Source: an uncultured Candidatus Saccharibacteria bacterium | GTDB taxonomy: Bacteria; Patescibacteriota; Saccharimonadia; Saccharimonadales; Saccharimonadaceae | Direction: 5' to 3' | Assembly: GCA_964585155.1 (NCBI GenBank) | Contig: CAZPCQ010000001.1 | Span: 8,070 to 72,069 of the forward strand | Length of the DNA stretch: 64,000 nucleotides | Part shown: one piece after another, positions 8,542 to 51,737 of the stretch | How positions within the stretch are numbered: position 1 is the first letter of the stretch | How the letters are laid out: every line of letters starts with the position of its first letter | Translations under genes and position numbers: made by a program | Notes under the pieces: model-generated | The model's database searches: none | The model's input: only the letters and a program-made list of their open reading frames with translations | What the model was told of the DNA's origin: nothing

Positions 8542-8757
8542 TTTTCCACATTACGTGGATAACTTTTCCGCTTTTTCACCATACCAAACCCGAACACAAA
8601 AAGTCCACTTTATTACTAACATAATTAGTTTCACCTCAGTTTTCCACTTATCCACTTTTATCTGTGGAAAACTCCCACTCCACCCACCGCTCCGACGGGG
8701 ATTTTTCTTATAAAAATCGGTGGTAAGTTTTCCACTTTTCCACCTACTTTTCCACAT
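8542..8757. promoter_or_regulatory. DnaA-box cluster downstream of recF
   Basis: TTTTCCACA (8542, 8749), CGTGGATAA (8554), TTATCCACT (8648), TGTGGAAAA (8663), TTTTCCACY (8640, 8729, 8737). Confidence 0.7.
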
Positions 8758-12679: not shown

Positions 12680-12870
12680 TTCCTTAATAACTTCATTATA
12701 CCAAACCTTCTCCCATTTTTCCACAGTTTTTTCTCCAAAAACCCACATTTTCCAACTATGTTATAATATGTCCACTCCGTAACAGAGATAACTTTTCCAC
12801 AGCCAGCTCCAAATCTCTAGTTTAATATGTGGAAAACTTCTTGAAAAAAGTGGAAAACTGGTGTATACTA
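12680..12870. promoter_or_regulatory. Divergent dnaA/rpmH promoters with DnaA boxes
   Basis: Boxes at 12717, 12793, 12828, 12849. rpmH promoter TTGAAA(12841)-17-TATACT(12864). Minus-strand TGGTATAAT near 12686. Confidence 0.7.
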
Positions 12871-16456: not shown

Positions 16457-18229
16457 TCACCGCGCCACGCATCTCACTGAAAGACCGTCATAACGGTTAC
16501 CATAACCACCGTTCTGTGCTGTGGGGTTTACTGAACTGCTGAAGGAGAGAACATATGATATAATATCGCTAACAGCACTATCGGATGACCAGTAATCGCC
16601 GCGAGAGCCAGCTTCTGTCATAGTCCCATGATACATATACCCACTGTATACGAAGAAAAGCGGCGCCAATCTGATATCGTATTGACCACTAGATAAGGTG
16701 CTCTGAAGGTTATATTGCGAGAGAAGGAAACCGAAAGATTTGCTGGATGTCTTATTATTGCCTATTGGTAGACGCCATCCCCTTGGACATATACTTCGTG
16801 AAGCAGATGCTTTGTCTGAAATATTCTGCGCCTCATTGGCTGTTGTTGCTCCCCAAGAGTAGTAATTACCTGATAAATAATGCGCGTCATACTCTTTATT
16901 AGTAACTACCTGGTTCCCCATATCTTTATAGAAATTAGGATTATCTGATGGAGTTAACGATTGTACGTTTTTCCATACATCTGCACATCCAGATAACGCA
17001 CTACCAGCGGTCAAATCACACTTTTTTATGGAAGTAGGATTTGAAAGTGCATATACGCCAGGGTTATAGTATTTCACCAAATTGGCGGTGTTTTGACTAC
17101 CGGACCAGAACCCACTCGCCCCCGTCGTCGACTTCCAGCTCCCCACTGTTTCCGGAATATCCGAATCCGCACTCGTCAGCGTCCTCCCGTTCAGATCAAG
17201 CGCCAAATTCTGCGTCATCCAACAGTTGCCATCCGCTAACTTCGCAATCCAGTAATACTTGCTATCTCTCGCATCCTTCACTCTTGCTGTATCACCTATC
17301 AGCGCCGCATCGCACACTCGCCACGTCATATCTTGCATTGTCGGCAGGGAAGATAGATTGACTACTTCTTTCGCATCTGTCGCTACACTCAGTGTGATAT
17401 TTGATTTATAGTGATCCGCTTTCGCCCCTTCCATATTTGCCGCGAACGCCAAAGTATATGGTTGTGTCACGTTGGTCAGTTGACTTCCATCACTTTTCTT
17501 CACTGTATCCGCCGCTATCCCTACTGTTGATTGGATTGCTTGATAAGTCAAACTCGCCGGGTCCGCATTATGACTTTTTGCCACCGCATAACCCCACTGC
17601 ATCGCGCCAATTCCATTCGCTGCTGTCGCTGTTGCGATACTACTAATTACATCCGGATTATTTGGTGTCGCACCGGTCAGCAAAGTACTGTCCGCCTGCA
17701 CGAACACTTGATATTGATCTACGTTGTTTGCTCCCACTGTGAAGTTTATGCTAATATATTGCGCTCCACCACTACTAGATACAGGCTGCGTGATAGTATT
17801 GTTATCCATTGCCGTGTCAATACTTAGTGCTACTCCTTTTTCCGGCACCGTTAGCGCTTGCGTATCGATCAAATTTTCTGTGTCACCCTCAGTTGCTGAT
17901 ACTTCACTTATTTGAGTAGGGAATATCATCATTCCGATTAACCCAACCAGAGCCAATGACGCCATCGCCGGCAAGCCTAGAGGAATTATCTTGCCCACAA
18001 TACGACTTTTCTTATGATTTAGACAAAATTCTTGGCGAGGGTCGCTCCCGAACTTTTCCACCACTCGTCCAGCCGCTTGTGTTTTCCTAAAGAAACTCTT
18101 ATTCAACTTATTTTTGTAGAAACAAGTACGTTTATCACTACGAAGAAGATGTGATTTTTGCTTAAGTTTTTCTGCACAAGAAACATTACTTTCTCGCACA
18201 GAATAAGTTTTCTTTATTCTATGCCTCAT
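16457..18229 (-). CDS. FISUMP (Fib_succ_major) domain surface protein 1
   Basis: LADGNCWMTQNL, GNYYSWGA, ICPRGWRLP, GDYWSS, GLSVRCVAR; TM helix; RBS AAGGAGG before MRHRIKK. Confidence 0.8.
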   Translation of the reverse strand: MRHRIKKTYSVRESNVSCAEKLKQKSHLLRSDKRTCFYKNKLNKSFFRKTQAAGRVVEKFGSDPRQEFCLNHKKSRIVGKIIPLGLPAMASLALVGLIGMMIFPTQISEVSATEGDTENLIDTQALTVPEKGVALSIDTAMDNNTITQPVSSSGGAQYISINFTVGANNVDQYQVFVQADSTLLTGATPNNPDVISSIATATAANGIGAMQWGYAVAKSHNADPASLTYQAIQSTVGIAADTVKKSDGSQLTNVTQPYTLAFAANMEGAKADHYKSNITLSVATDAKEVVNLSSLPTMQDMTWRVCDAALIGDTARVKDARDSKYYWIAKLADGNCWMTQNLALDLNGRTLTSADSDIPETVGSWKSTTGASGFWSGSQNTANLVKYYNPGVYALSNPTSIKKCDLTAGSALSGCADVWKNVQSLTPSDNPNFYKDMGNQVVTNKEYDAHYLSGNYYSWGATTANEAQNISDKASASRSICPRGWRLPIGNNKTSSKSFGFLLSQYNLQSTLSSGQYDIRLAPLFFVYSGYMYHGTMTEAGSRGDYWSSDSAVSDIISYVLSFSSSVNPTAQNGGYGNRYDGLSVRCVAR

Positions 18230-18566
18230 TGGCCCTCCTTGTTGGTTATTATTTTGGGCCAACACAAAATACTTGAATATAAATATAATTGGCCCTTCTT
18301 CGCTCGAGCGCCAACTTTCAGTCTACAACTAAAAACGACACCCTAGGTCCGAGTATCTCACTACGCGGAGGTGTCTACGTACAACTAATCTTTCGAATAC
18401 TTGTGAGCAAACGACTTTTTACCTAAGGTGCCGTTCAAATCTCATAAGTATTACCAAACTAGTTTCTTCAAACTTTAACAAATTGTACATAGATTATTAT
18501 AAAAATAATCCGCATAGTGAGATAACCCCATTATACCACATTTCTCACCAAATCAACCCAAAAAAC

Positions 18567-18622
18567 TTATCCACCACCCGCACACCACTTGTGCAAAACT
18601 CTGTGGAAAACTCTGTGCAAAA
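18567..18622. promoter_or_regulatory. DnaA-box-like cluster upstream of the FISUMP-1 promoter
   Basis: TTATCCACC 18567; TGTGCAAAA 18590; TGTGGAAAA 18602; TGTGCAAAA 18614. Confidence 0.55.
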
Positions 18623-18683
18623 CTTTCCGCGCACCTAATAATATAATATAACCCCGCGGAAAACCATTCCCCTACTCCCCCCT

Positions 18684-21725: not shown

Positions 21726-23894
21726 ATGTCAAAGTTCACCCAAGAACTACAATCCGAGTTTTCCGCTCGTCGTAATCTACTCTTTGTGGTTTTTGCTTTT
21801 TGTATGGTCGCCACGCTCTCATTTTTTGCGACTAGCCGTATGCACGAATCTTCCGCTGCCAATCTTAGTAACTTTACTCCTGGTAATATTATCAGTGATG
21901 CCGTGATGTCTAATTATAGTTCTATGAGCGAACAAGATATTCAAAACTTCCTCAATAGTAAGAATAAGTGTGATAATCGCGATTACAATCTTTACCTGCA
22001 GTACACTAGTTCCAAGCCCACCATTTCTTGGCATTGGGAAGGCGAGCCTTACAATGGTCATTTTGTTTGTCTAGCCGAAGAAAAGTTTGGCGAAACTGCT
22101 TCCGAGATTGGTACCGGCAAAACTGCCGCTCGGATTATTTACGAAGCCGCTCAGGCTAATCATATCAATCCTCAGGCTCTCCTCGTCCTTTTGCAAAAAG
22201 AATCTAGCCTCATTACTGACAAAGTTCCCAATTCTTACGACTATGGCCAAGCCACCGGTTACGGCTGTCCTGATACCGCCGCTTGTGATAAAAAGTATTC
22301 TGGCTTTAGCAATCAAGTTCACCGCGCCGCCGAACTTTTCCGCTATGTCCTCGACCACAACTCTGTTTATTATCCCGCTGGCCGTACTGTCTACGTTGGC
22401 TATCATCCTAATTCCAGCTGTGGCGGCACTCAAGTCCTCATCGAAAATCGCGCCACTGCCGCCCTCTATCAATACACGCCTTATCAGCCCAACGCCTCTT
22501 CTCTCGCCGCTGGTTATGGCCAAGGCGACACCTGCTCCGCCTACGGCAACCGCAATTTTTATCTTTATTTCACTGATTGGTTTGGCAGCACTCAGGCCGC
22601 CGTTGAAGGGGAACTAGTGGATATTCCGGACGGTTCCTATACTTTAGTTTCCGGACTTTCCGAGCAGCGCATTCTCGGCGCCTCTTCTCGTAATGTCCAG
22701 CTGAGTAATATTACCGCCGCTGATACCTGGACTATCAAGCGCGATACTAATGGCTTGTATGAACTTACCAATGCCGCCACCAACCTCCCGCTCTCCGTTG
22801 ATCAGTCTCAACCCGAATCCGGCACCAACGTTTCTGTCCGTGCCACTTCCACTGAATGCGCCAAAAAATGGAAAATTTACCAAACCAAAGATGGCTACCT
22901 CACTTTAGAATCTTCCTGTACCAGTGGTTTCGTTCTCGATGTTAATGGTGGCTCTTCTGCTGTTGGTACCAATATCCAGACTTATATCACCAACGCCAGC
23001 CTTTCCCAAAAATGGCACCTCCGCGCCAGCCAAACCCTCGACGACGGTGTCTATACTATCTCTTCTGCACTCGACCGCAGTGCTATGATTGACGTTGCCG
23101 GCGGTGGTACTCACAATGGTGCTAATATTCAGATCTATGAGAACAACCAAACCCTCTCTCAGAAGTGGCTCATTCAATACGATTCTAGTACTGGTCATTA
23201 TACTATTACAAACCCACTTTCCAATAAATCCATCGACATTTCTTATGGCAATATCAAAGATGGTACCAATATCTGGCTTTATGAGCATAATAGTACTTGT
23301 TCTCAGCAATGGAATATTATTGAATCCGCTGGTCGTTATGTTATTTCTTCTGCTTGTTCACCTCTTAAAGTTCTTGAACTCAAAAACAAATCTACTACTA
23401 ATAGCACTAACATCCAGCTCCAAACTTATGACCGTGATCACCTTGGCGAATCTTGGGTTATTACCAAATCTCCTGAGCCTTCCGATGGTACTTATGCGAT
23501 TCACGCTCGTCTTGATAACGATCAATTACTCGACGCCTCGAACGGCAATGTTCAACTTTATCAATCCCAGTCCGACCGTAACCAAAAATGGACCATCAAA
23601 AAATCTGTCACCTCGGGATATTACACTATCGTTGATCAATCTTCCGGCCAAGCCATAGATATTAAATATGGTGACATTCGCAACAGTACCAATATTTGGC
23701 TCTACGACCAGAACAACACTTGTTCTCAACAATGGTATATTATCGAAAGTCGGTCTGACCATTATACGATTTTCTCTTCTTGTGTCTTAAATTATACTCT
23801 TGATGTTACTTACGGTGATGCTCGTAATGGCACTAATATCCAACTTTATCAGTCCAACGGTACGATTTCCCAAGAGTGGTATTTTGCTCGTTAA
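21726..23894 (+). CDS. Surface protein: lysozyme-like N-terminal domain plus ricin-B lectin repeats
   Basis: INPQALLVLLQKES..ATGYGCPD; repeated QxW ricin motifs (GANIQIY..SQKW, GTNIWLY..CSQQW). Confidence 0.75.
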   Translation: MSKFTQELQSEFSARRNLLFVVFAFCMVATLSFFATSRMHESSAANLSNFTPGNIISDAVMSNYSSMSEQDIQNFLNSKNKCDNRDYNLYLQYTSSKPTISWHWEGEPYNGHFVCLAEEKFGETASEIGTGKTAARIIYEAAQANHINPQALLVLLQKESSLITDKVPNSYDYGQATGYGCPDTAACDKKYSGFSNQVHRAAELFRYVLDHNSVYYPAGRTVYVGYHPNSSCGGTQVLIENRATAALYQYTPYQPNASSLAAGYGQGDTCSAYGNRNFYLYFTDWFGSTQAAVEGELVDIPDGSYTLVSGLSEQRILGASSRNVQLSNITAADTWTIKRDTNGLYELTNAATNLPLSVDQSQPESGTNVSVRATSTECAKKWKIYQTKDGYLTLESSCTSGFVLDVNGGSSAVGTNIQTYITNASLSQKWHLRASQTLDDGVYTISSALDRSAMIDVAGGGTHNGANIQIYENNQTLSQKWLIQYDSSTGHYTITNPLSNKSIDISYGNIKDGTNIWLYEHNSTCSQQWNIIESAGRYVISSACSPLKVLELKNKSTTNSTNIQLQTYDRDHLGESWVITKSPEPSDGTYAIHARLDNDQLLDASNGNVQLYQSQSDRNQKWTIKKSVTSGYYTIVDQSSGQAIDIKYGDIRNSTNIWLYDQNNTCSQQWYIIESRSDHYTIFSSCVLNYTLDVTYGDARNGTNIQLYQSNGTISQEWYFAR

Positions 23895-40519: not shown

Positions 40520-42178
40520 CTAGCTGCCAGTAGTAAGGCAGCGAATTGACTGTGCGAAAGTCTGTGACGTGCCAGAGGATGTTCCCGCATAGTTAGCAGT
40601 AAATGTAAAGGCGTTAGCATCATTTCCATTAGGTATGGAGGTCCAATATCCCCCTTGCTTGCCTACATCATCATAGTCAGCCCCATTGCTGTATCGTCCG
40701 GCAGGCACTAAGTATTGTGGTGAATGCCGCAAAGTTCCATAATCACTACCCGTCACTGAGACTACGAAACTAGTAGGTAATTTCCATCCTTTAGGGCATA
40801 TATCACCATTCCCGCTAGCAGCACCAACGTTGCTACCACGAGTATTACTTGCATTTGCTGTATTATATGGGTAGTAATCGCCAACAAGATAATGAGTGTC
40901 TGTATTATTGGGGATACTTCCATTAAAGACCTCGAAATATGCTGTACAGGTAATAACTGTCCCTATATGGCAACCGGTCGATGGCATAGCTGCTGTGGCG
41001 CTAGATGGTTTATATATGTATGTGCCAGGATTATAGTAATTACCTAAGTCTGAAAACGTAAACACAGAAGGTACATTAGTGTCTTCCGGTTTCAATGTAG
41101 TCCCTACAGACAACGGCAAATCAAGATTTTGTGTCATCCAACAATTTCCGTCTTTCAGCTTGCCAACCCAATAAATAGTTTTGCCTAATCCACTCGTAGT
41201 GCGATCATCTACAAGTTGGATTTGGTCTCCGACTGCCATATTTGAGCAGACGGTCGGATATTTTGCGAACTCTTGCATTGTTGTTTCGCCACTTATTACA
41301 TCCAAAACGTCCCACTCATTCGGTAATACGGATAAAAGTACATTTGAAGTATAATGGCCAGCAACTTTATCTTTGCCGAATTTTGCTGCAAAGGAGATCT
41401 TAAGGGCTGCGCCAGCTCCCCCGGTACTTTTGTCAGTAGTATAACTTTCGGTCTTAGTTGGTTCTACTTCCGGCATAGTGCTATATTGTAAACTGGAATC
41501 AGCTTTGCTGGATTCTGCTATTGCGTATCCCCAAGTATTGTCTGCAAAATTATTGGGGGACACATTTTCTCCTACTCCAAATAACACATCGGGCGCTTCT
41601 TGGTTTTGCAATTTGTTAGAGTTTGCCTGTACATATACTTTGTAGCCTTGTGTTCGGCACGCTGTCACTGTAAAATCTTTTGAGAGATAGCTGACTGCAT
41701 TATTGGCAATATCGTCGTCTACACTCTTACTTAAATTTACATCTCCGGTCATATCAAGCGCTAAAACTGGTTTTCCGGCGGCACACTCTTCTGCTGGAGT
41801 TTCCGCATATACTCTTTCTCCGCCAACTCCCACTGGAAATATCATTAAACCTAATACCAAAAGAAGAGCAAATGAGGCTAGTACTAGAGGAATAGTACTA
41901 GGTCTAAGCGACCCAACTCTTCCTTTCCTAAGAAACCGTCCGCAGCGCCACGAGCGAGGAAGAGGTGGCTCGCACCCGTAACGACGGGCTGCGAGAACAC
42001 CGCGTTTCGTGGAAAGTGAAGAGTTGAGGTCGCTTGCGTCAGAGAACTTATCATTACTTGGCTTATCTTTGTAGAAATAAGTATAAGTACTTTTATCACT
42101 ATGAAGAAGATTTTGTCCATCACTAACGCAATGTAACAACGTACTTAAGTTTGGTATTTTCTTTATTCTATGGCGCAT
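40520..42178 (-). CDS. FISUMP domain surface protein 2
   Basis: LKDGNCWMTQNL, GDYYPYNTA, ICPKGWKLP, GGYWTS, QSIRCL; starts MRHRIKK like protein 1. Confidence 0.8.
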   Translation of the reverse strand: MRHRIKKIPNLSTLLHCVSDGQNLLHSDKSTYTYFYKDKPSNDKFSDASDLNSSLSTKRGVLAARRYGCEPPLPRSWRCGRFLRKGRVGSLRPSTIPLVLASFALLLVLGLMIFPVGVGGERVYAETPAEECAAGKPVLALDMTGDVNLSKSVDDDIANNAVSYLSKDFTVTACRTQGYKVYVQANSNKLQNQEAPDVLFGVGENVSPNNFADNTWGYAIAESSKADSSLQYSTMPEVEPTKTESYTTDKSTGGAGAALKISFAAKFGKDKVAGHYTSNVLLSVLPNEWDVLDVISGETTMQEFAKYPTVCSNMAVGDQIQLVDDRTTSGLGKTIYWVGKLKDGNCWMTQNLDLPLSVGTTLKPEDTNVPSVFTFSDLGNYYNPGTYIYKPSSATAAMPSTGCHIGTVITCTAYFEVFNGSIPNNTDTHYLVGDYYPYNTANASNTRGSNVGAASGNGDICPKGWKLPTSFVVSVTGSDYGTLRHSPQYLVPAGRYSNGADYDDVGKQGGYWTSIPNGNDANAFTFTANYAGTSSGTSQTFAQSIRCLTTGS

Positions 42179-42590
42179 CTGCCCTCCTTGTGGGTATTAA
42201 TTATCGCCCCGCAGCCGCCATCTTTGAGGAGGGCCAACTCCATACAAAAATGGCGCCGCGAGGCGAAACCACAATCTAGAAGCAATCTGCTCAAGAACGT
42301 TAGCTTTCTCGTGACGCCATTTTCACGTTCTCAAACAAATACACTCAAATAAGCAATTGTCATAATTCCAAATTGTGATTTCGCACTTCCAATTATATAT
42401 CAAACTGTCTGCGTTTTCAAGCATTTTTCTCGCCTCCCCAGCGAGCTGACGTACGTATCATAAGTTTCATAACCCACTCTTTAGCAGTTAGGATTAAAAA
42501 CCTTCAGAGCTGTCAACAACACGGCCTCCTAAGGCAGATACCTCCTCCTCTCCATCTCTCCTCTAGCGAATTAATCTTGATATTATGCTC

Positions 42591-46337: not shown

Positions 46338-48328
46338 AGATCCTCCGCAACCTTCTCTGGCCCCTAGTCTACGCCCTCCCTGCCGTCCTCTTTTTCTCCT
46401 ATCACCCCGTCATCGGCCTCGGCGCCAACTCCTCCATGAACTTCGAACTCTCCCTTCCGCTCCTCTGGCTGATTATTTTTGATTTCTTTAGTTTCATTAC
46501 AATGGTCGTCCTCTTCGTTCAAAAACGTCAATCAGCGCAGCACAAATCCACTTCAAAATCAATAGGCCAAGCATCCGCCCGCTCTAAGCATCACTCTGGC
46601 CCCTGGGGACCTCACCTCCCTGGCCTCACCGACCGCCGCTTCTTCCTCTTAGCCATTTTCCCGCTCTACCTCACCATCTCGGTTTTCTGGTCGGCCAATC
46701 CCCTCCGCGGTCTCTTCACCGCCGGCGTGATGTGGGCTGTCTTTTTCGCCGTTTTCTCTCTGTTATTTATTGTCCCCCAGACTGGCGCTCCTCGCCGCCT
46801 CCGCACTCACGTCCTCTTGACAATGTTCATCTCCGCTGTTATCGTTTGCAAATTTTGCTATGCTCAGAGTATTATGGATACTTGCTTTGGCCTTTCCCGC
46901 GATGCTACTCTCCTCTGCCCCGGCTGCACTTACCGCTCCTTCGGCTTTCCTCATCCTTCCGGCTTCGCCATCGAGCCCCAGTTTATGGGCAATCTCCTTC
47001 TCGCCCCCACCCTCACCGCGCTCTATCTCGTCGCCTTCCGCTCGCGCAAATTCGCCAATACCGTTATCCATGAAGCCTCTCATCTTGAGAATGAGGCCGA
47101 ACATAATCTCCTTCACGACCAAGTTCACCTCCCCGAGGTCAACTGGAAACTCTGGCAACGCATCGGTATGATCATCCTCGCCGGCTTCCTTTCGATGACG
47201 CTGTTTTTCACCTTCTCCCGCGGCGCCATTTACGCTTACGTCGTCGCCATCTTGAGTATGCTAATTTTTGCCCTCAAGCGTCACCAATTCCGCTGGAGCC
47301 TCATCGCTATCCCCGTTGTCAGTTTCATCCTCTCGCTCAGCCTCCAGGGAACATTCGCCGCCGTCGGCCCCACCGCTGAGACTTTCTTCTCCGGCGTCGC
47401 CAAATCCGTCCACCAGCTCTCCCTCGGCCTCATCGACTTCCGTTCGCTCGCTTATGAGCCCTCCGAGGACGCCATCGAGCAATATAGTTATGAGCATGCC
47501 GTCCCCACCTCTGTCGCTCGGGAGATTCTCAAACGTCAATATCAATCCCAGCTCTCTTCTCAATCTGTGAAAAACTCCTCATCAAACGGTGGAAAACCTG
47601 TGGATAAAACCAGCCTAGATGTGGAAAAGAATGACCAAAATGTAGATAAAATCGATCAAGATGTAGAAAAAACCGCCGAAATCATCGACCACGAAATCAC
47701 CAAAGAGGAAACCAAGTTAGAAAACGAGGTTGATACTACGCTTGAAGATATCATTTTCGAGGGCTACGTTCCCGAATCCACCAATATCCGCCTGCACCTC
47801 AATCGCGCCGCCATCGACACCTGGCTTTCCGCCCCCGGCCATCCCGAGTCCGGCCTCAGTATTGGTCTCAAATGTTCCCACTCCGACCCCTGCCTTGCCT
47901 CTGGTAAACTCACTCCCACCAGCATCCTCTTCGGCGTTGGCCTTGGTGGTGCCGGCACCGCCCTCTATCTCAATTCTCCCGTTACTGACATTAACTCGCC
48001 CAAAGAAATCGTCCAAAACGAACCCTTCTCCCTCCTCTTAGAAACCGGACTCGTCGGCATCGCTCTGGCTATTTTCGGACTCCTCATCATCTTCGCGCCC
48101 CAGATTTTCACGCGCAAATTCCTCGACGGCAAATCCGCTCCAGCTACCAAATCCACCCCCAGCCCCTTCTGGCGCCATCCCGCTCTCCCGCTTCTCCTCT
48201 CCCTCATCGTCGCCTACGTCATCACCCTCAATTTCTTCTCCGGCCTCCCCAACGCCCTCCAGATTTACCTCATGCCGCCCCTCCTCTACCTCATCTTTTC
48301 TGACCACTACCGCGTCACCACTGTTTAG
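46334..48328 (+). CDS. O-antigen ligase/polymerase-like (Wzy_C) membrane protein
   Basis: Many TMs; GFAIEPQ, TFSRGA, FGVGLGG, NEPFSLLLETGLVG. Confidence 0.75.
   Translation: MKILRNLLWPLVYALPAVLFFSYHPVIGLGANSSMNFELSLPLLWLIIFDFFSFITMVVLFVQKRQSAQHKSTSKSIGQASARSKHHSGPWGPHLPGLTDRRFFLLAIFPLYLTISVFWSANPLRGLFTAGVMWAVFFAVFSLLFIVPQTGAPRRLRTHVLLTMFISAVIVCKFCYAQSIMDTCFGLSRDATLLCPGCTYRSFGFPHPSGFAIEPQFMGNLLLAPTLTALYLVAFRSRKFANTVIHEASHLENEAEHNLLHDQVHLPEVNWKLWQRIGMIILAGFLSMTLFFTFSRGAIYAYVVAILSMLIFALKRHQFRWSLIAIPVVSFILSLSLQGTFAAVGPTAETFFSGVAKSVHQLSLGLIDFRSLAYEPSEDAIEQYSYEHAVPTSVAREILKRQYQSQLSSQSVKNSSSNGGKPVDKTSLDVEKNDQNVDKIDQDVEKTAEIIDHEITKEETKLENEVDTTLEDIIFEGYVPESTNIRLHLNRAAIDTWLSAPGHPESGLSIGLKCSHSDPCLASGKLTPTSILFGVGLGGAGTALYLNSPVTDINSPKEIVQNEPFSLLLETGLVGIALAIFGLLIIFAPQIFTRKFLDGKSAPATKSTPSPFWRHPALPLLLSLIVAYVITLNFFSGLPNALQIYLMPPLLYLIFSDHYRVTTV
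47566..47670 (+). repeat. Small phased DnaA-box array inside the ligase-like gene
   Basis: Boxes at 47566, 47588, 47599 (perfect TGTGGATAA), 47620, 47641, 47662. Confidence 0.75.
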
Positions 48329-49753: not shown

Positions 49754-50252
49754 TAAAATTCCTCCTTTGAGTAGTCTAAAGCCACTCCATCCAGTGGCCT
49801 TATTTCTACCCAAACAGGGAATTAACTAACCAAAATGTACCTAAGCCACTACAGATAATAGACTGTAGCCAGCCCATATCTCCACTATAGCACACATCTG
49901 CCAAAAAGTCAAGGTTGCTTTTCCGCCCAATCATATGATTTTATACTATCGACTAAAATAAAATCAATACCGCCTACACTTCTCTCCTGCAAAGTCAAAC
50001 TAACTCGCGAAATCTCACTATTTTCCACTCAAAACCTAAATTCTGTGCTATAATAGAACTGCTGAAAGACAATTTGATTAAGTAACCTATGGTTTTATAT
50101 GTAGCCTACATTTTTCATAATGCATTAAAATGGCGTCACGAACGGCTAAAAAAGTGCATTGTGATCGTAAGGTTACTCTGTTGTCTTTCAGCACCGTCTC
50201 GCGGCGCCATTTTTGTATTAAGCCTCGGGCGGTGAACTAATAAAGGAGGCAG

Positions 50253-51737
50253 ATGCTAAAACTCAACACTAAATTAAAATACCCACTCTTCACAATAACT
50301 TTTGCGTTGGGTGGATTTTTCTTATTTCAATACCTAACTTTTATTCCCGAATACTCCAACGCCACAACTATAGAAACTCCCGTCTACGACGATTCCAAAG
50401 TCGACACGCGCACTCTTTCTGACATTACTTATATGCAAGAAATGACATCTGGAATATGTAAACGTTCTGTAAAAAATGAAAGTAAACAACTTATCGATGG
50501 CCGTGATGGAAAACACTATTGGGTAACAAAGCTCGTTGGTCCAGGCGGTGAAGAAAAAAATGGATGTTGGATGACGCAAAATTTGGATTTCGATTTGTGG
50601 AATGAGGAGACTAATGAACCAATAGTATTAAAAGTGGATAATTTAAATTTTATGGGCACAGATATAGAAAAGAATTGGGAGTCTACTTCTGGGAGATCTG
50701 TGCTATGGGCGGATTCGGGGAGCGAGACAGTTAAGTACTATGACCCGGGGTACTATTTGTATAAAGGCTTTTCTTTACGTCAGCCGGCGTCTCGCGATTT
50801 GGCATATGGCAAGGCATCGGAAAATTTGACCTTGACGGATGCTCATTACCTTCAAGGGAATTACTATTCATTCAACGCTGCTACGGCTGGCAAAGGGGCA
50901 AATTTTGGCCTTGTGGGTAAGGATGAAGATGTACGGAGTAGTATTTGTCCGAAAGGCTGGAGGCTACCTACGGCTCTTAGTGATGATGGGGTGTCATTCA
51001 ATTTTTTAAATACAGTAAGCACAACTAAGATATTTTCATCACCGTATTTCTTTATAAATAGCGGTTTTGTGAATGGAGGCTTGCTAGATGATGCCTTCGC
51101 TGGTAGATACTGGTCTTCTACGGCTTATGCTTATAGGGACGATGCTTATGATTGGGGTTTTGCTGATGGTGACGAGTGGCCAGCGCTTGGTATAATTTAC
51201 AGATATGAGGGAAAGACTATAAGATGCGTAGCGAGGGACGATACTGAAGATGTGGAGACTCCGGGCATTGATAATCCAAACACCTCCGTCACCGTCCCAA
51301 ACATAATAACACTAGACGTAAGTAATAATGTAAATATAGAAACAAATACTAATACAGTAAACGAAGGTAGTTTCACCGCTTCCGTCAGTTCTAATGCTCC
51401 ATATAGCATTAGTCTTAGTACCACGGATGGTGGCCACACCGACTTACGTAATGATAATACCAACTCCTCCATTCCCGCATTAAACCCTACTTCTAATATC
51501 ACAGAGAGTAGTAGTAAATGGTGGGGAATCAAATGTACTAACTCAGGCACTTCCACGGGTTGTACTAAAACAACCTATACTGGTCTTACTAATCACTTAA
51601 CTCCCACTCTTTTCTATACATCAACTCAAAGTACCTCTAACCAACTCACCCACTTCACCATCGGCATCCAAACCTCTCCCGACCTCCCAAGTGGCACTTA
51701 TTCCACCAGTATATTAGTTACTGCATCTCAGAATTAG
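50253..51737 (+). CDS. FISUMP domain surface protein 3 (FISUMP first, beta-sandwich domain last)
   Basis: NGCWMTQNL, GNYYSFNAA, ICPKGWRLP, GRYWSST, TIRCVAR; RBS AAGGAGG. Confidence 0.8.
   Translation: MLKLNTKLKYPLFTITFALGGFFLFQYLTFIPEYSNATTIETPVYDDSKVDTRTLSDITYMQEMTSGICKRSVKNESKQLIDGRDGKHYWVTKLVGPGGEEKNGCWMTQNLDFDLWNEETNEPIVLKVDNLNFMGTDIEKNWESTSGRSVLWADSGSETVKYYDPGYYLYKGFSLRQPASRDLAYGKASENLTLTDAHYLQGNYYSFNAATAGKGANFGLVGKDEDVRSSICPKGWRLPTALSDDGVSFNFLNTVSTTKIFSSPYFFINSGFVNGGLLDDAFAGRYWSSTAYAYRDDAYDWGFADGDEWPALGIIYRYEGKTIRCVARDDTEDVETPGIDNPNTSVTVPNIITLDVSNNVNIETNTNTVNEGSFTASVSSNAPYSISLSTTDGGHTDLRNDNTNSSIPALNPTSNITESSSKWWGIKCTNSGTSTGCTKTTYTGLTNHLTPTLFYTSTQSTSNQLTHFTIGIQTSPDLPSGTYSTSILVTASQN

Follow-up and report, generated by a model that had tools for sequence, protein, structure and literature searches.

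In terminator/antiterminator leaders, a structured domain lies between the promoter and the Shine-Dalgarno (SD) sequence, a GC-rich stem is followed by a U-tract, the arms of the terminator are shared between alternative nested pairings (1:2/2:3/3:4) and the gene depends on read-through. The ZTP (pfl), preQ1-II and SAM-II riboswitches contain a long-range pseudoknot of 4-8 bp between a loop and the 3' tail, with its 3' strand in the terminator or SD module, as well as conserved ligand pockets and coherent regulons. The 5' stabilisers of Escherichia coli ompA and Bacillus subtilis aprE and ermC are simple hairpins that include the first nucleotides of the transcript, and in the exonuclease-resistant RNA of flaviviruses (xrRNA) the apical loop of a three-way junction pairs with a strand located 3' of the closing helix. 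The leader described here, which has traits of these systems, is found at 18331-18535 on the minus strand of a 64,000-nt stretch (the window) of an uncultured Candidatus Saccharibacteria bacterium (assembly GCA_964585155.1, contig CAZPCQ010000001.1, positions 8,070 to 72,069), upstream of a gene for a FISUMP-domain protein.

Saccharibacteria live as ultrasmall epibionts; their genomes are tiny and encode few regulators that can be recognised. Their surface proteins are the likeliest mediators of attachment to host bacteria and, to our knowledge, the control of these proteins has not been described. Some Saccharibacteria can now be cultured in co-culture and engineered.

Results

Two interleaved long-range helices

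On the minus strand, the extended -10 promoter TGGTATAAT (18538-18530; TG at 18538-18537 and TATAAT at 18535-18530) is separated by 5 nt from the 5' arm of helix a, UAUCUCACUAUGCGGA (18524-18509), which contains the RNA 5' end predicted from the -10 position (about 18524-18522). This arm pairs with a', UCCGCGUAGUGAGAUA (18369-18354), through 16 contiguous bp with one G.U pair. Segment b, AACGGCACCUUAGGU (18435-18421), in the apical region of the stalk, pairs with b', ACCUAGGGUGUCGUU (18348-18334), through 15 bp with two G.U pairs, or 16 bp when one more G.U is counted. The linker CUCGG lies between a' and b', and b' runs into a U5 tract (18335-18331) as the 3' arm of a terminator-like module. 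A sequence-only reading of the window had already described the promoter and these four segments, and its coordinates and sequences were all correct when checked base by base on the minus strand, including the statement that the three deviations from Watson-Crick pairing are G.U pairs of the sense strand; neither helix has any other mismatch. That four-segment description left the topology unstated. The arms follow the order a<b<a'<b' and are therefore interleaved, b:b' being a pseudoknot relative to the stalk that ends on a terminator-like U-tract.

The arms of helix a were also recovered independently by an inverted-repeat search. Among 1000 dinucleotide shuffles of the 194-nt segment, a perfect helix of Watson-Crick and G.U pairs with a length of at least 15 bp appeared in 0.9%, and the real segment contains two 16-bp helices and one 13-bp helix. 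The minus strand of the target folds with -96.5 kcal/mol (z = -5.7) and the plus strand with -69 kcal/mol (z = -3.9).

The family has been collected from genomes and from metagenomes. A total of 80 related loci, almost exclusively from Candidatus Saccharibacteria genomes, were gathered through two paralogous proteins used as queries, and a search with a short 3' motif and the helices revealed 35 further leaders in these protein-chosen loci, which give 38 copies with the three of the window. A covariance model of the b...a'-b'-U module, with rough E-values and with seed sequences that match their own model by construction, added about 10 leaders outside its seed. Metagenome contigs were scanned with a DNA pattern of the 3' module alone, so that the conservation of b and b' in this set, ascertained by an exact 3' pattern, is partly built in; the 80 loci taken comprised about 55 full elements and about 25 plain 38-nt symmetric terminator hairpins. 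Many of these contigs are assigned to Saccharibacteria because their neighbouring open reading frames (ORFs) share 55-91% identity with those of the Saccharibacteria loci or the window. Overall, more than 90 copies were found, from gut, rumen or termite-type and other metagenomes.

Both long-range helices covary. In a MAFFT alignment made from sequence only, b:b' is 91.8% paired over the 38 copies, versus 35-57% in slid controls, and double compensatory changes are present in 7 of its 15 pairs (A-U in 23 copies and G-C in 13 at one position, C-G in 21 and U-A in 15 at another), a level reached by none of 500 shuffles. Helix a:a' is 92.6% paired in 27 copies, against 60% in shuffles and 33-40% in slid controls, with compensatory changes in 13 of 16 pairs; this alignment was anchored solely on the invariant UGU...ACA. 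Partners swapped between leaders gave -10.4 kcal/mol for the a duplex, compared with -27.0 kcal/mol for matched ones, and -11.9 versus -25.7 kcal/mol for the interior stalk; the true partner was ranked first in 36 of the 38 copies for a and in 32 for the interior stalk. The a duplex of the target reaches -31.2 kcal/mol with its own partner and -15.2 kcal/mol at best with the partners of the 37 other leaders. Cross-talk between paralogues through b and b' was also considered and appears unlikely, as the two segments covary within a leader and differ between paralogues of one genome.

In a compact class of metagenome leaders, for which the structure was written by hand and the pairs were counted helix by helix, the RNA consists of P1 (equivalent to a:a'), an internal loop, P2, a three-way junction with a small P3, P4 and the pseudoknot, and P4 bears a loop of about 27 nt that contains b. 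Pairing amounts to 91% in P1, 85% in P2, 77% in P4 and 96% in the pseudoknot, and compensatory changes were found in 7 of 7 pairs of both P2 and P4. The conserved stretches outside the helices are the GUGA of the internal loop, CAUAAGCA and the short junction strands, the meaning of which is uncertain. RNAalifold, applied to the alignment of this class, recovered only b:b' and a small number of pairs in the interior, as the stalk is too variable for MAFFT to align correctly. A hammerhead-like three-way junction was rejected for this class, its conserved core lying outside the junction strands and no model matching it. One metagenome contig that also bears a leader copy (L119) has, at 2256-2310 of the plus strand, a sub-threshold match to the type III hammerhead (31.6 bits versus a gathering score of 48.5, E = 0.0023).

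RNA structure or DNA repeat

The sequence-only reading had favoured an RNA structure over DNA inverted repeats, since its three deviations were all G.U on the mRNA strand. Three such pairs in a single copy are weak evidence in a window whose minus strand is G-rich throughout. The GC skew of the plus strand lies between -0.05 and -0.5 in 30 of the 32 bins, and the other two, near 0, are at 50-52 kb and 62-64 kb. The skew keeps its sign on both sides of dnaA without a switch, and it weakens any G.U argument drawn from one copy. The argument holds because the bias is repeated family-wide and in the copy at 50.1 kb, which is encoded by the plus strand. Over the 38 copies, the internal positions that are not Watson-Crick pairs comprise 71 G.U, 6 A.C and 11 others; the sense fold is better than the antisense fold in 36 of the 38 (mean difference 11.4 kcal/mol, p = 2e-7), and with the covariance model, the score of the sense strand exceeds that of the antisense strand by about 30 bits. 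The same G.U bias is present across dozens of genomes, and its recurrence there and in the plus-strand copy settles the strand question. The folding and covariation check that had been proposed with the original claim has thus been run, and both of its parts support the RNA.

A DNA-level feature, such as recombinase sites, a cruciform or operator half-sites, has in its favour that the element consists of long inverted repeats beside the promoter of a multigene surface-protein family, a context in which phase variation is common. This explanation, together with a chance pattern, which the shuffles exclude, can be practically dismissed. The promoter lies outside the a/a' repeats, the four DNA runs that cover the locus contain the reference arrangement only, with no inverted or rearranged joints, and the arms differ between copies and yet stay complementary. 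The strand asymmetry of the wobble pairs, taken with the position of the promoter and the absence of such joints, also led to the rejection of an invertible DNA switch. It is close to certain that the element is a real and conserved structure of the sense-strand RNA, at the 5' end of the transcript.

A terminator-like module with alternative pairings

The U-tract is invariant in the alignments and it is conserved as U, since the A:U pairs that adjoin the stem are replaced by G.U only and never by G-C or any other standard pair. In the target, a terminator scan called the local hairpin GAUACUC/GGGUGUC (hairpin T, 18357-18337; 7 pairs, three of them G.U; -8.3 kcal/mol) followed by U5, and b:b' abuts the same U-tract. 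Hairpin T, immediately ahead of the U-tract, draws one arm from the 3' end of a' and the other from the 3' half of b'. Segment b' has two possible partners, either the remote loop b, through 12-20 bp (about -23 kcal/mol), or the adjacent 3' end of a'. These pairings are mutually exclusive, with the 3' end of a' common to a:a' and T, and b' common to T and b:b'. Hairpin T is canonical in about half of the copies (6-7 bp, -9 to -13 kcal/mol) and has only 4 bp in a dozen members, in which b:b', with 15-18 bp, is longest.

The plain 38-nt hairpins found in the metagenomes (L084, L095, L097, L099, L107, L112, L114, L122, L125, L128, L140, L141, L145, L151, L156, L159 and others) have an A-tract and a U-tract, score equally on both strands and resemble b and b' joined by a short loop; from their sequences, they are classified as ordinary bidirectional terminators. 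Canonical terminators formed by a hairpin and a U-tract are also present at gene ends within the window.

No promoter-like site was found at 18230-18330 of the minus strand, between the U-tract of the target and its gene, and the layout is that of an attenuator, with a terminator between promoter and ORF and no second promoter. In many copies, the U-tract and the SD are too close together to accommodate a promoter, which makes the gene dependent on read-through. These data also bear on the possibility that the element is an independent small RNA gene, made up of a promoter, a structured RNA of about 190 nt and a terminator, that merely lies upstream of protein genes. It has a promoter of its own and a terminator-like 3' end, and many copies per genome exist. 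Nevertheless, such a gene is very unlikely, as the element is always co-oriented with a gene and immediately before it, the SD is as near as 4-30 nt past the U-tract with no second promoter, and outside b and b' the sequence is gene-specific and not conserved.

The sharing of arms would also be expected of a sensor domain, riboswitch-like or protein-binding, that is ON when its stalk is folded. Binding of a ligand, ion or protein would stabilise the fold, closure of a:a' would remove the 5' arm of T and b would capture its 3' arm, allowing read-through. Both arms of T do overlap elements of the folded domain, an overlap that is the standard layout of the expression platform in transcriptional riboswitches, and the conserved stretches outside the helices of the compact class (GUGA, CAUAAGCA and the junction strands) could belong to such a sensor. 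However, in a dozen members hairpin T is limited to 4 bp and b:b' is the sole strong helix at the U-tract, and the A-tract of b pairs with the U-tract as a terminator's own A-tract does. Moreover, the downstream genes have no common metabolic theme and the interiors of FISUMP-type copies are not conserved in sequence, so that this explanation is regarded as rather improbable.

Segment b has an unpaired probability of 0.51 in the family, compared with 0.26 for the rest of the leader, and of 0.28 in the target. The release of b requires 6.5 kcal/mol, and formation of the b:b' duplex provides -23.4 kcal/mol. The folding tools used treat nested structures only, so the pseudoknot b:b' is outside their energies. 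If the stalk were straight, b would be out of reach of b'. In most copies, a branch or bulge is found on the 5' strand near the position at which the stalk would have to fold back, with a mean deviation of 4.1 bp versus 9.4 bp expected; in the target, the predicted hinge is at 32.0 and junctions are located at 16 and 32.

The position of the hinge would fit a co-existence of stalk and pseudoknot, exactly so in the target, and this speaks for a constitutive expression module, in which the closed fold, with its paired 5' end and its pseudoknot from loop to tail, guards the mRNA from 5'-end-dependent decay by RNase J or pyrophosphohydrolase with little or no regulated termination, the U-tract being a folding pause or a landing site for ribosomal protein S1 before the SD. 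Helix a is at the predicted +1 in about 85 copies, the promoters have strong consensus extended -10 boxes, the downstream envelope and secreted proteins, including a pilin, are often abundant, and the stalk with b:b' is thermodynamically the most stable state. In addition, a three-way junction with a pseudoknot from loop to 3' tail is the topology of exonuclease-resistant viral RNAs. On the other hand, a simple 5' hairpin is enough in known stabilisers, which leaves the elaborate b:b' unexplained, the U-tract is kept as U and not merely as paired bases, and about half of the copies include a local terminator hairpin of canonical form, which any predictor would detect. A purely constitutive role is given a minor share of the probability.

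Proposed mechanism

The interpretation preferred here is that the leader acts as a transcription attenuator built from a split terminator, with conditional termination, and a rough probability of 0.5 is assigned to it. It is proposed because the 3' module is terminator-like, undivided hairpins of b joined to b' exist and the genome uses terminators of the hairpin and U-tract type. The probable start of transcription from the extended -10 promoter is at helix a or within 1-3 nt of it, and the RNA forms a branched stalk with the 5'-terminal helix a:a' at its base. The apical loop region of this stalk (b, A-rich on its 5' side) is complementary to b', which follows a' and leads into the U-tract. 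Segment b' and U5 would form the 3' half of an intrinsic terminator, whose 5' half could be supplied by the remote loop b, giving a pseudoknotted stem, or with lower stability by hairpin T, in which the end of a' takes this place. Helix a:a' would compete with T, and b would compete with T for b'.

With regard to polarity, termination is the default state towards which the analysis leans, with b:b' as the terminator stem, since b carries an A-tract that mirrors the U-tract and b:b' is the sole strong helix at the U-tract in the members with a weak T; the opposite polarity, in which the folded leader is ON, is a live rival. Read-through would need b or b' to be withheld by a factor or by an alternative pairing. 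In the target, the sequence GUCGUU (18415-18410), detected in the minimum free energy (MFE) fold, could base-pair with AACGGC in b and has the same sequence as the 3' terminus of b'; it is present in the target copy only and, as we infer from the fold, may act there as a decoy that holds b. The paired 5' end would probably also shield the RNA from 5'-end-dependent decay, and a translational lock, in which an anti-SD sequence pairs with the SD, may follow.

Several observations weigh against conditional termination. The covariation of hairpin T is weak (-7.75 versus -6.81 kcal/mol, p = 0.03). The fold-back test is only suggestive, as many FISUMP-type copies fit it poorly and the members of the compact class are not independent. 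Some downstream genes, such as that of the type IV secretion system (T4SS) pilin, are normally highly expressed, which sits badly with termination by default, and the set of downstream genes is too varied to suggest a metabolite as riboswitch effector. Searches for RNA runs covering the target locus yielded host-labelled runs only. In the metatranscriptome of a relative's locus (L041), the contigs are of low depth and broken at paralogue repeats, and the one contig of 151 nt that spans the U-tract does not decide the matter.

The branched stalk of the target

In the target, the stalk continues above helix a:a' with an inner helix of 13 bp, found by the inverted-repeat search, between UCUAUGUACAAUU (18493-18481) and AGUUGUACGUAGA (18386-18374). 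The first branch point, 16 bp from the base, is a small hairpin on the 5' side (UUAUU-UUUAU-AAUAA, 18494..18508) that appears in MFE folds, and the second one, 32 bp from the base, is another hairpin on the same side (AGUUU-GAAG-AAACU, 18461..18474; MFE). The upper helix of the stalk pairs AAUACUUAUGAG (18452-18441) with CUCACAAGUAUU (18407-18396) and was obtained both by the inverted-repeat search and in the MFE fold.

Helix a exists and pairs with a' as the sequence-only reading had described, and it seems to be an extra outer helix of this copy. In the MAFFT alignment, the family consensus of the a' end, UUAGACACC, aligns with the arm of the inner helix, ...GUACGUAGACACC (18386-18370), that is, with the 3' arm of the inner helix plus CACC, and the a' of the target is treated as a 21-nt insertion. 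A second TATAAT (18500-18495) is located inside the small 5'-side hairpin, 4 bases ahead of the inner helix. Compared with this inner TATAAT, the outer promoter conforms more closely to the family rule, with TGn present and its end 5 bases before the outer helix, and for this reason the outer helix a:a' is taken here, on sequence grounds, as an add-on that lengthens the stalk, the inner helix being the counterpart of the closing helix of the family and the inner TATAAT possibly a relic.

Layout of the family and downstream genes

The layout common to the family is an extended -10 box, 3-6 nt, a, 25-77 nt of stalk, b, 26-51 nt of stalk, a', a linker of 0-11 nt and b' with the U-tract, and the ribosome-binding site comes 11-340 nt later. 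The -10 box (TGnTAnAAT) ends 3-6 nt before the first paired base of a in 32 of the 38 copies, and TGn is present in 31; in 50 copies of the metagenome full elements, the box is 4-6 nt before helix a. Outside b and b', the sequence of the leader is gene-specific, and the interior of the FISUMP-type copies is not conserved. The leader occurs in multiple copies per genome.

In the genome loci, an ORF of the FISUMP family lies 30-340 nt beyond nearly every match. The genes found downstream of the metagenome leaders encode T4SS pilin, DUF4352 proteins, an Ltp-type lipoprotein with PASTA, DUF6591 and DUF669 proteins, a metallophosphoesterase (Metallophos), zinc-ribbon and other small membrane proteins and some FISUMP proteins, and the start codon is often 11-60 nt past the U-tract, with the SD as near as 4-30 nt. 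Judged from these sequences, the leader is general to the lineage and enriched before envelope and secreted proteins. The term leader is therefore well founded in the position of the element, with a -10 box just before helix a and an ORF downstream, and a name that ties it to FISUMP genes is too narrow, as other types of genes follow it. A Eubacteriales genome (L034) and one Saccharibacteria subfamily (L013) have FISUMP genes that lack the leader.

Other origins and roles have been considered. Leaderless translation from a conserved 5' GUG was rejected, since the copies of the window lack the initial GUG and no conserved frame follows it. A mobile repeat, similar to miniature inverted-repeat transposable elements (MITE) or repetitive extragenic palindromic (REP) sequences, was rejected because the window copies are alike in architecture and not in sequence, outside the SD and start codon and b/b'. 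With regard to a phage or plasmid origin, no blastn match was found in phage or plasmid collections, and no match to the pattern among the 2.9 million viral contigs of IMG/VR.

Copies and genes in the window

The covariance model, run with filters off, gives exactly three sense-strand matches in the window, at 18326-18442 (minus strand, the target), 42241-42328 (minus strand) and 50122-50219 (plus strand), which agrees with the earlier count of the target as a third instance. The second copy (42246..42397, minus strand) is composed of a -10 box at 42397-42392, a at 42384-42366, b at 42323-42308, a' at 42281-42263 and b' at 42262-42247 with its U-run, and the ATG of its gene begins at 42178. 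In the third one (50046..50214, plus strand), the box TGcTATAAT is located at 50046-50054, a at 50060-50072, b at 50127-50141, a' at 50181-50193 and b' at 50199-50213 with its U-run, and the ATG begins at 50253. A gene with a FISUMP domain is downstream of each copy, and the three leaders have a common architecture and no common sequence outside the region of the SD and start codon and b/b'.

The gene downstream of the target (16457-18229, minus strand; first base of the ATG at 18229) has a strong SD and encodes a FISUMP-domain protein of 590 amino acids that starts with MRHRIKK and has an N-terminal membrane anchor (TIGR02145, 45.8 bits versus a cut-off of 41.65; weak match to Pfam PF09603). 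The segment between terminator and start codon (18229..18295, minus strand) contains GGGCCAA (18295-18289), the anti-SD UUGGCCC (18262-18256) and the SD AAGGAGG together with another GGGCCAA (18240-18229). In all three copies an anti-SD directly follows the U-tract, in the regions 18229-18295, 42180-42240 and 50215-50255, with GGGCCAA/UUGGCCC/GGGCCAA in the target, GGCCCUCCU with AGGAGGGC at 42 kb and GCCUC with GAGGC at 50 kb. In 31 of 45 family members, at least 4 of 5 positions of the SD are paired in the fold, a count that has no shuffled control. Judged from such folds, the pairing of SD and anti-SD could be a second, translational lock.

The SD and the first codons of two of these genes, at 18196-18240 and 42157-42189, share the 33-nt pattern AAGGAGGGC..ATG.G.CATAGAATAAAGAAAA (MRHRIKK), identical at 29 of 33 positions, and the two paralogues are otherwise 29% identical as proteins. 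In the DNA contigs of the four runs, this 33-nt segment has a depth 5-10 times that of its flanks, so it appears to be a multi-copy start region common to many paralogues.

Upstream of the target leader there is a gene of the LCP family, and the window also encodes dnaA-dnaN-recF and yidC-jag. A protein of 722 amino acids with five ricin-type beta-trefoil lectin repeats (21726-23894, plus strand), probably a surface carbohydrate-binding protein, is encoded next to the FISUMP/LCP cluster, without a leader of this type. The 12-mers GTTTT[CG]CACAGA (TTTTCCACA / TTTTGCACA), similar to DnaA boxes, have 10 matches in the window against 0.58 expected, all on the minus strand. About three of them are in tandem with a spacing of 12 bp immediately upstream of the promoter of the target leader (18590-18625, minus strand), five form a cluster at 33.7-34.0 kb (33685-33975) and others are at 8661-8672, 12826-12837 and 47564-47575; one of the sites lies upstream of dnaA. 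These sequences could indicate control of the target promoter by DnaA or an origin-like cluster.

Discussion

The structured leader found before many envelope and secretion genes of Saccharibacteria would offer a direct handle on the regulation of their surface proteins. For RNA biology, it is a well-supported new motif, with three helices rich in compensatory changes and a putative terminator whose 5' arm comes from a distant loop. A more ambitious interpretation is that this would be the first class of regulatory RNA confined to Saccharibacteria, or perhaps shared with other lineages of the Candidate Phyla Radiation. A branched, ring-closing leader with a split-terminator pseudoknot would respond to a global signal or protein and in this way co-ordinate a regulon for surface and secretion (FISUMP adhesin-like proteins, type IV secretion pilin, lipoproteins and small membrane proteins). 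This proposal is put forward as a tentative one, with the balance of probability against it.

The split-terminator design is absent from Rfam. A search of the whole window with the 4227 models of Rfam 15 returned, at gathering score, only a tRNA; the target gave two chance-level matches at E <= 10, and in nine related genome loci and ten metagenome loci nothing was found on the element at E <= 1. In full-text searches of the literature, neither this element nor the FISUMP genes of Saccharibacteria were found to be described. A metabolite riboswitch was rejected because the downstream genes are not coherent and the FISUMP-type interior is unconserved, and a T-box leader because no model matches and the downstream genes are unrelated. 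The element is a new RNA family, of unusual design within a known kind of system.

Compared with terminator/antiterminator leaders, the Saccharibacteria leader has the same arrangement of a structured domain between promoter and SD, a GC-rich stem with U-tract, shared terminator arms and dependence on read-through. It differs from them in that the strongest partner of its 3' arm is a remote loop located 70-95 nt upstream, so that the pairings are interleaved instead of nested, and in that it has neither a leader peptide nor an Rfam match. The halves of a canonical bidirectional terminator are also recognised in b (A-tract and GCGRCAYC) and b' (GGUGYCGC and U-tract); in the leader they are 30-70 nt apart, and the spacer pairs with the 5' part of the transcript.

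The covarying complementarity between loop and 3' strand (91.8%, and 96% in the compact class) is that of an H-type pseudoknot from loop to 3' tail, as in the ZTP, preQ1-II and SAM-II riboswitches. Unlike these, which have conserved ligand pockets, coherent regulons and short pseudoknots, the leader has a stalk free in sequence, diverse genes and a pseudoknot of 12-20 bp. With the flavivirus xrRNA it shares a topology, as the apical loop that pairs 3' of the closing helix could close a ring, and no similarity of sequence or model; the viral structure protects the RNA downstream of a degrading 5' end, whereas the leader starts at +1. As in the stabilisers of ompA, aprE and ermC, a helix is predicted to be near the RNA 5' end, here according to the distance between the -10 box and the helix and the start predicted from it, although those hairpins have no terminator module or pseudoknot. 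Among the systems compared here, the leader appears closest in function to the terminator/antiterminator leaders, and in topology to the pseudoknot riboswitches, ZTP in particular, and to the viral exonuclease-resistant RNAs.

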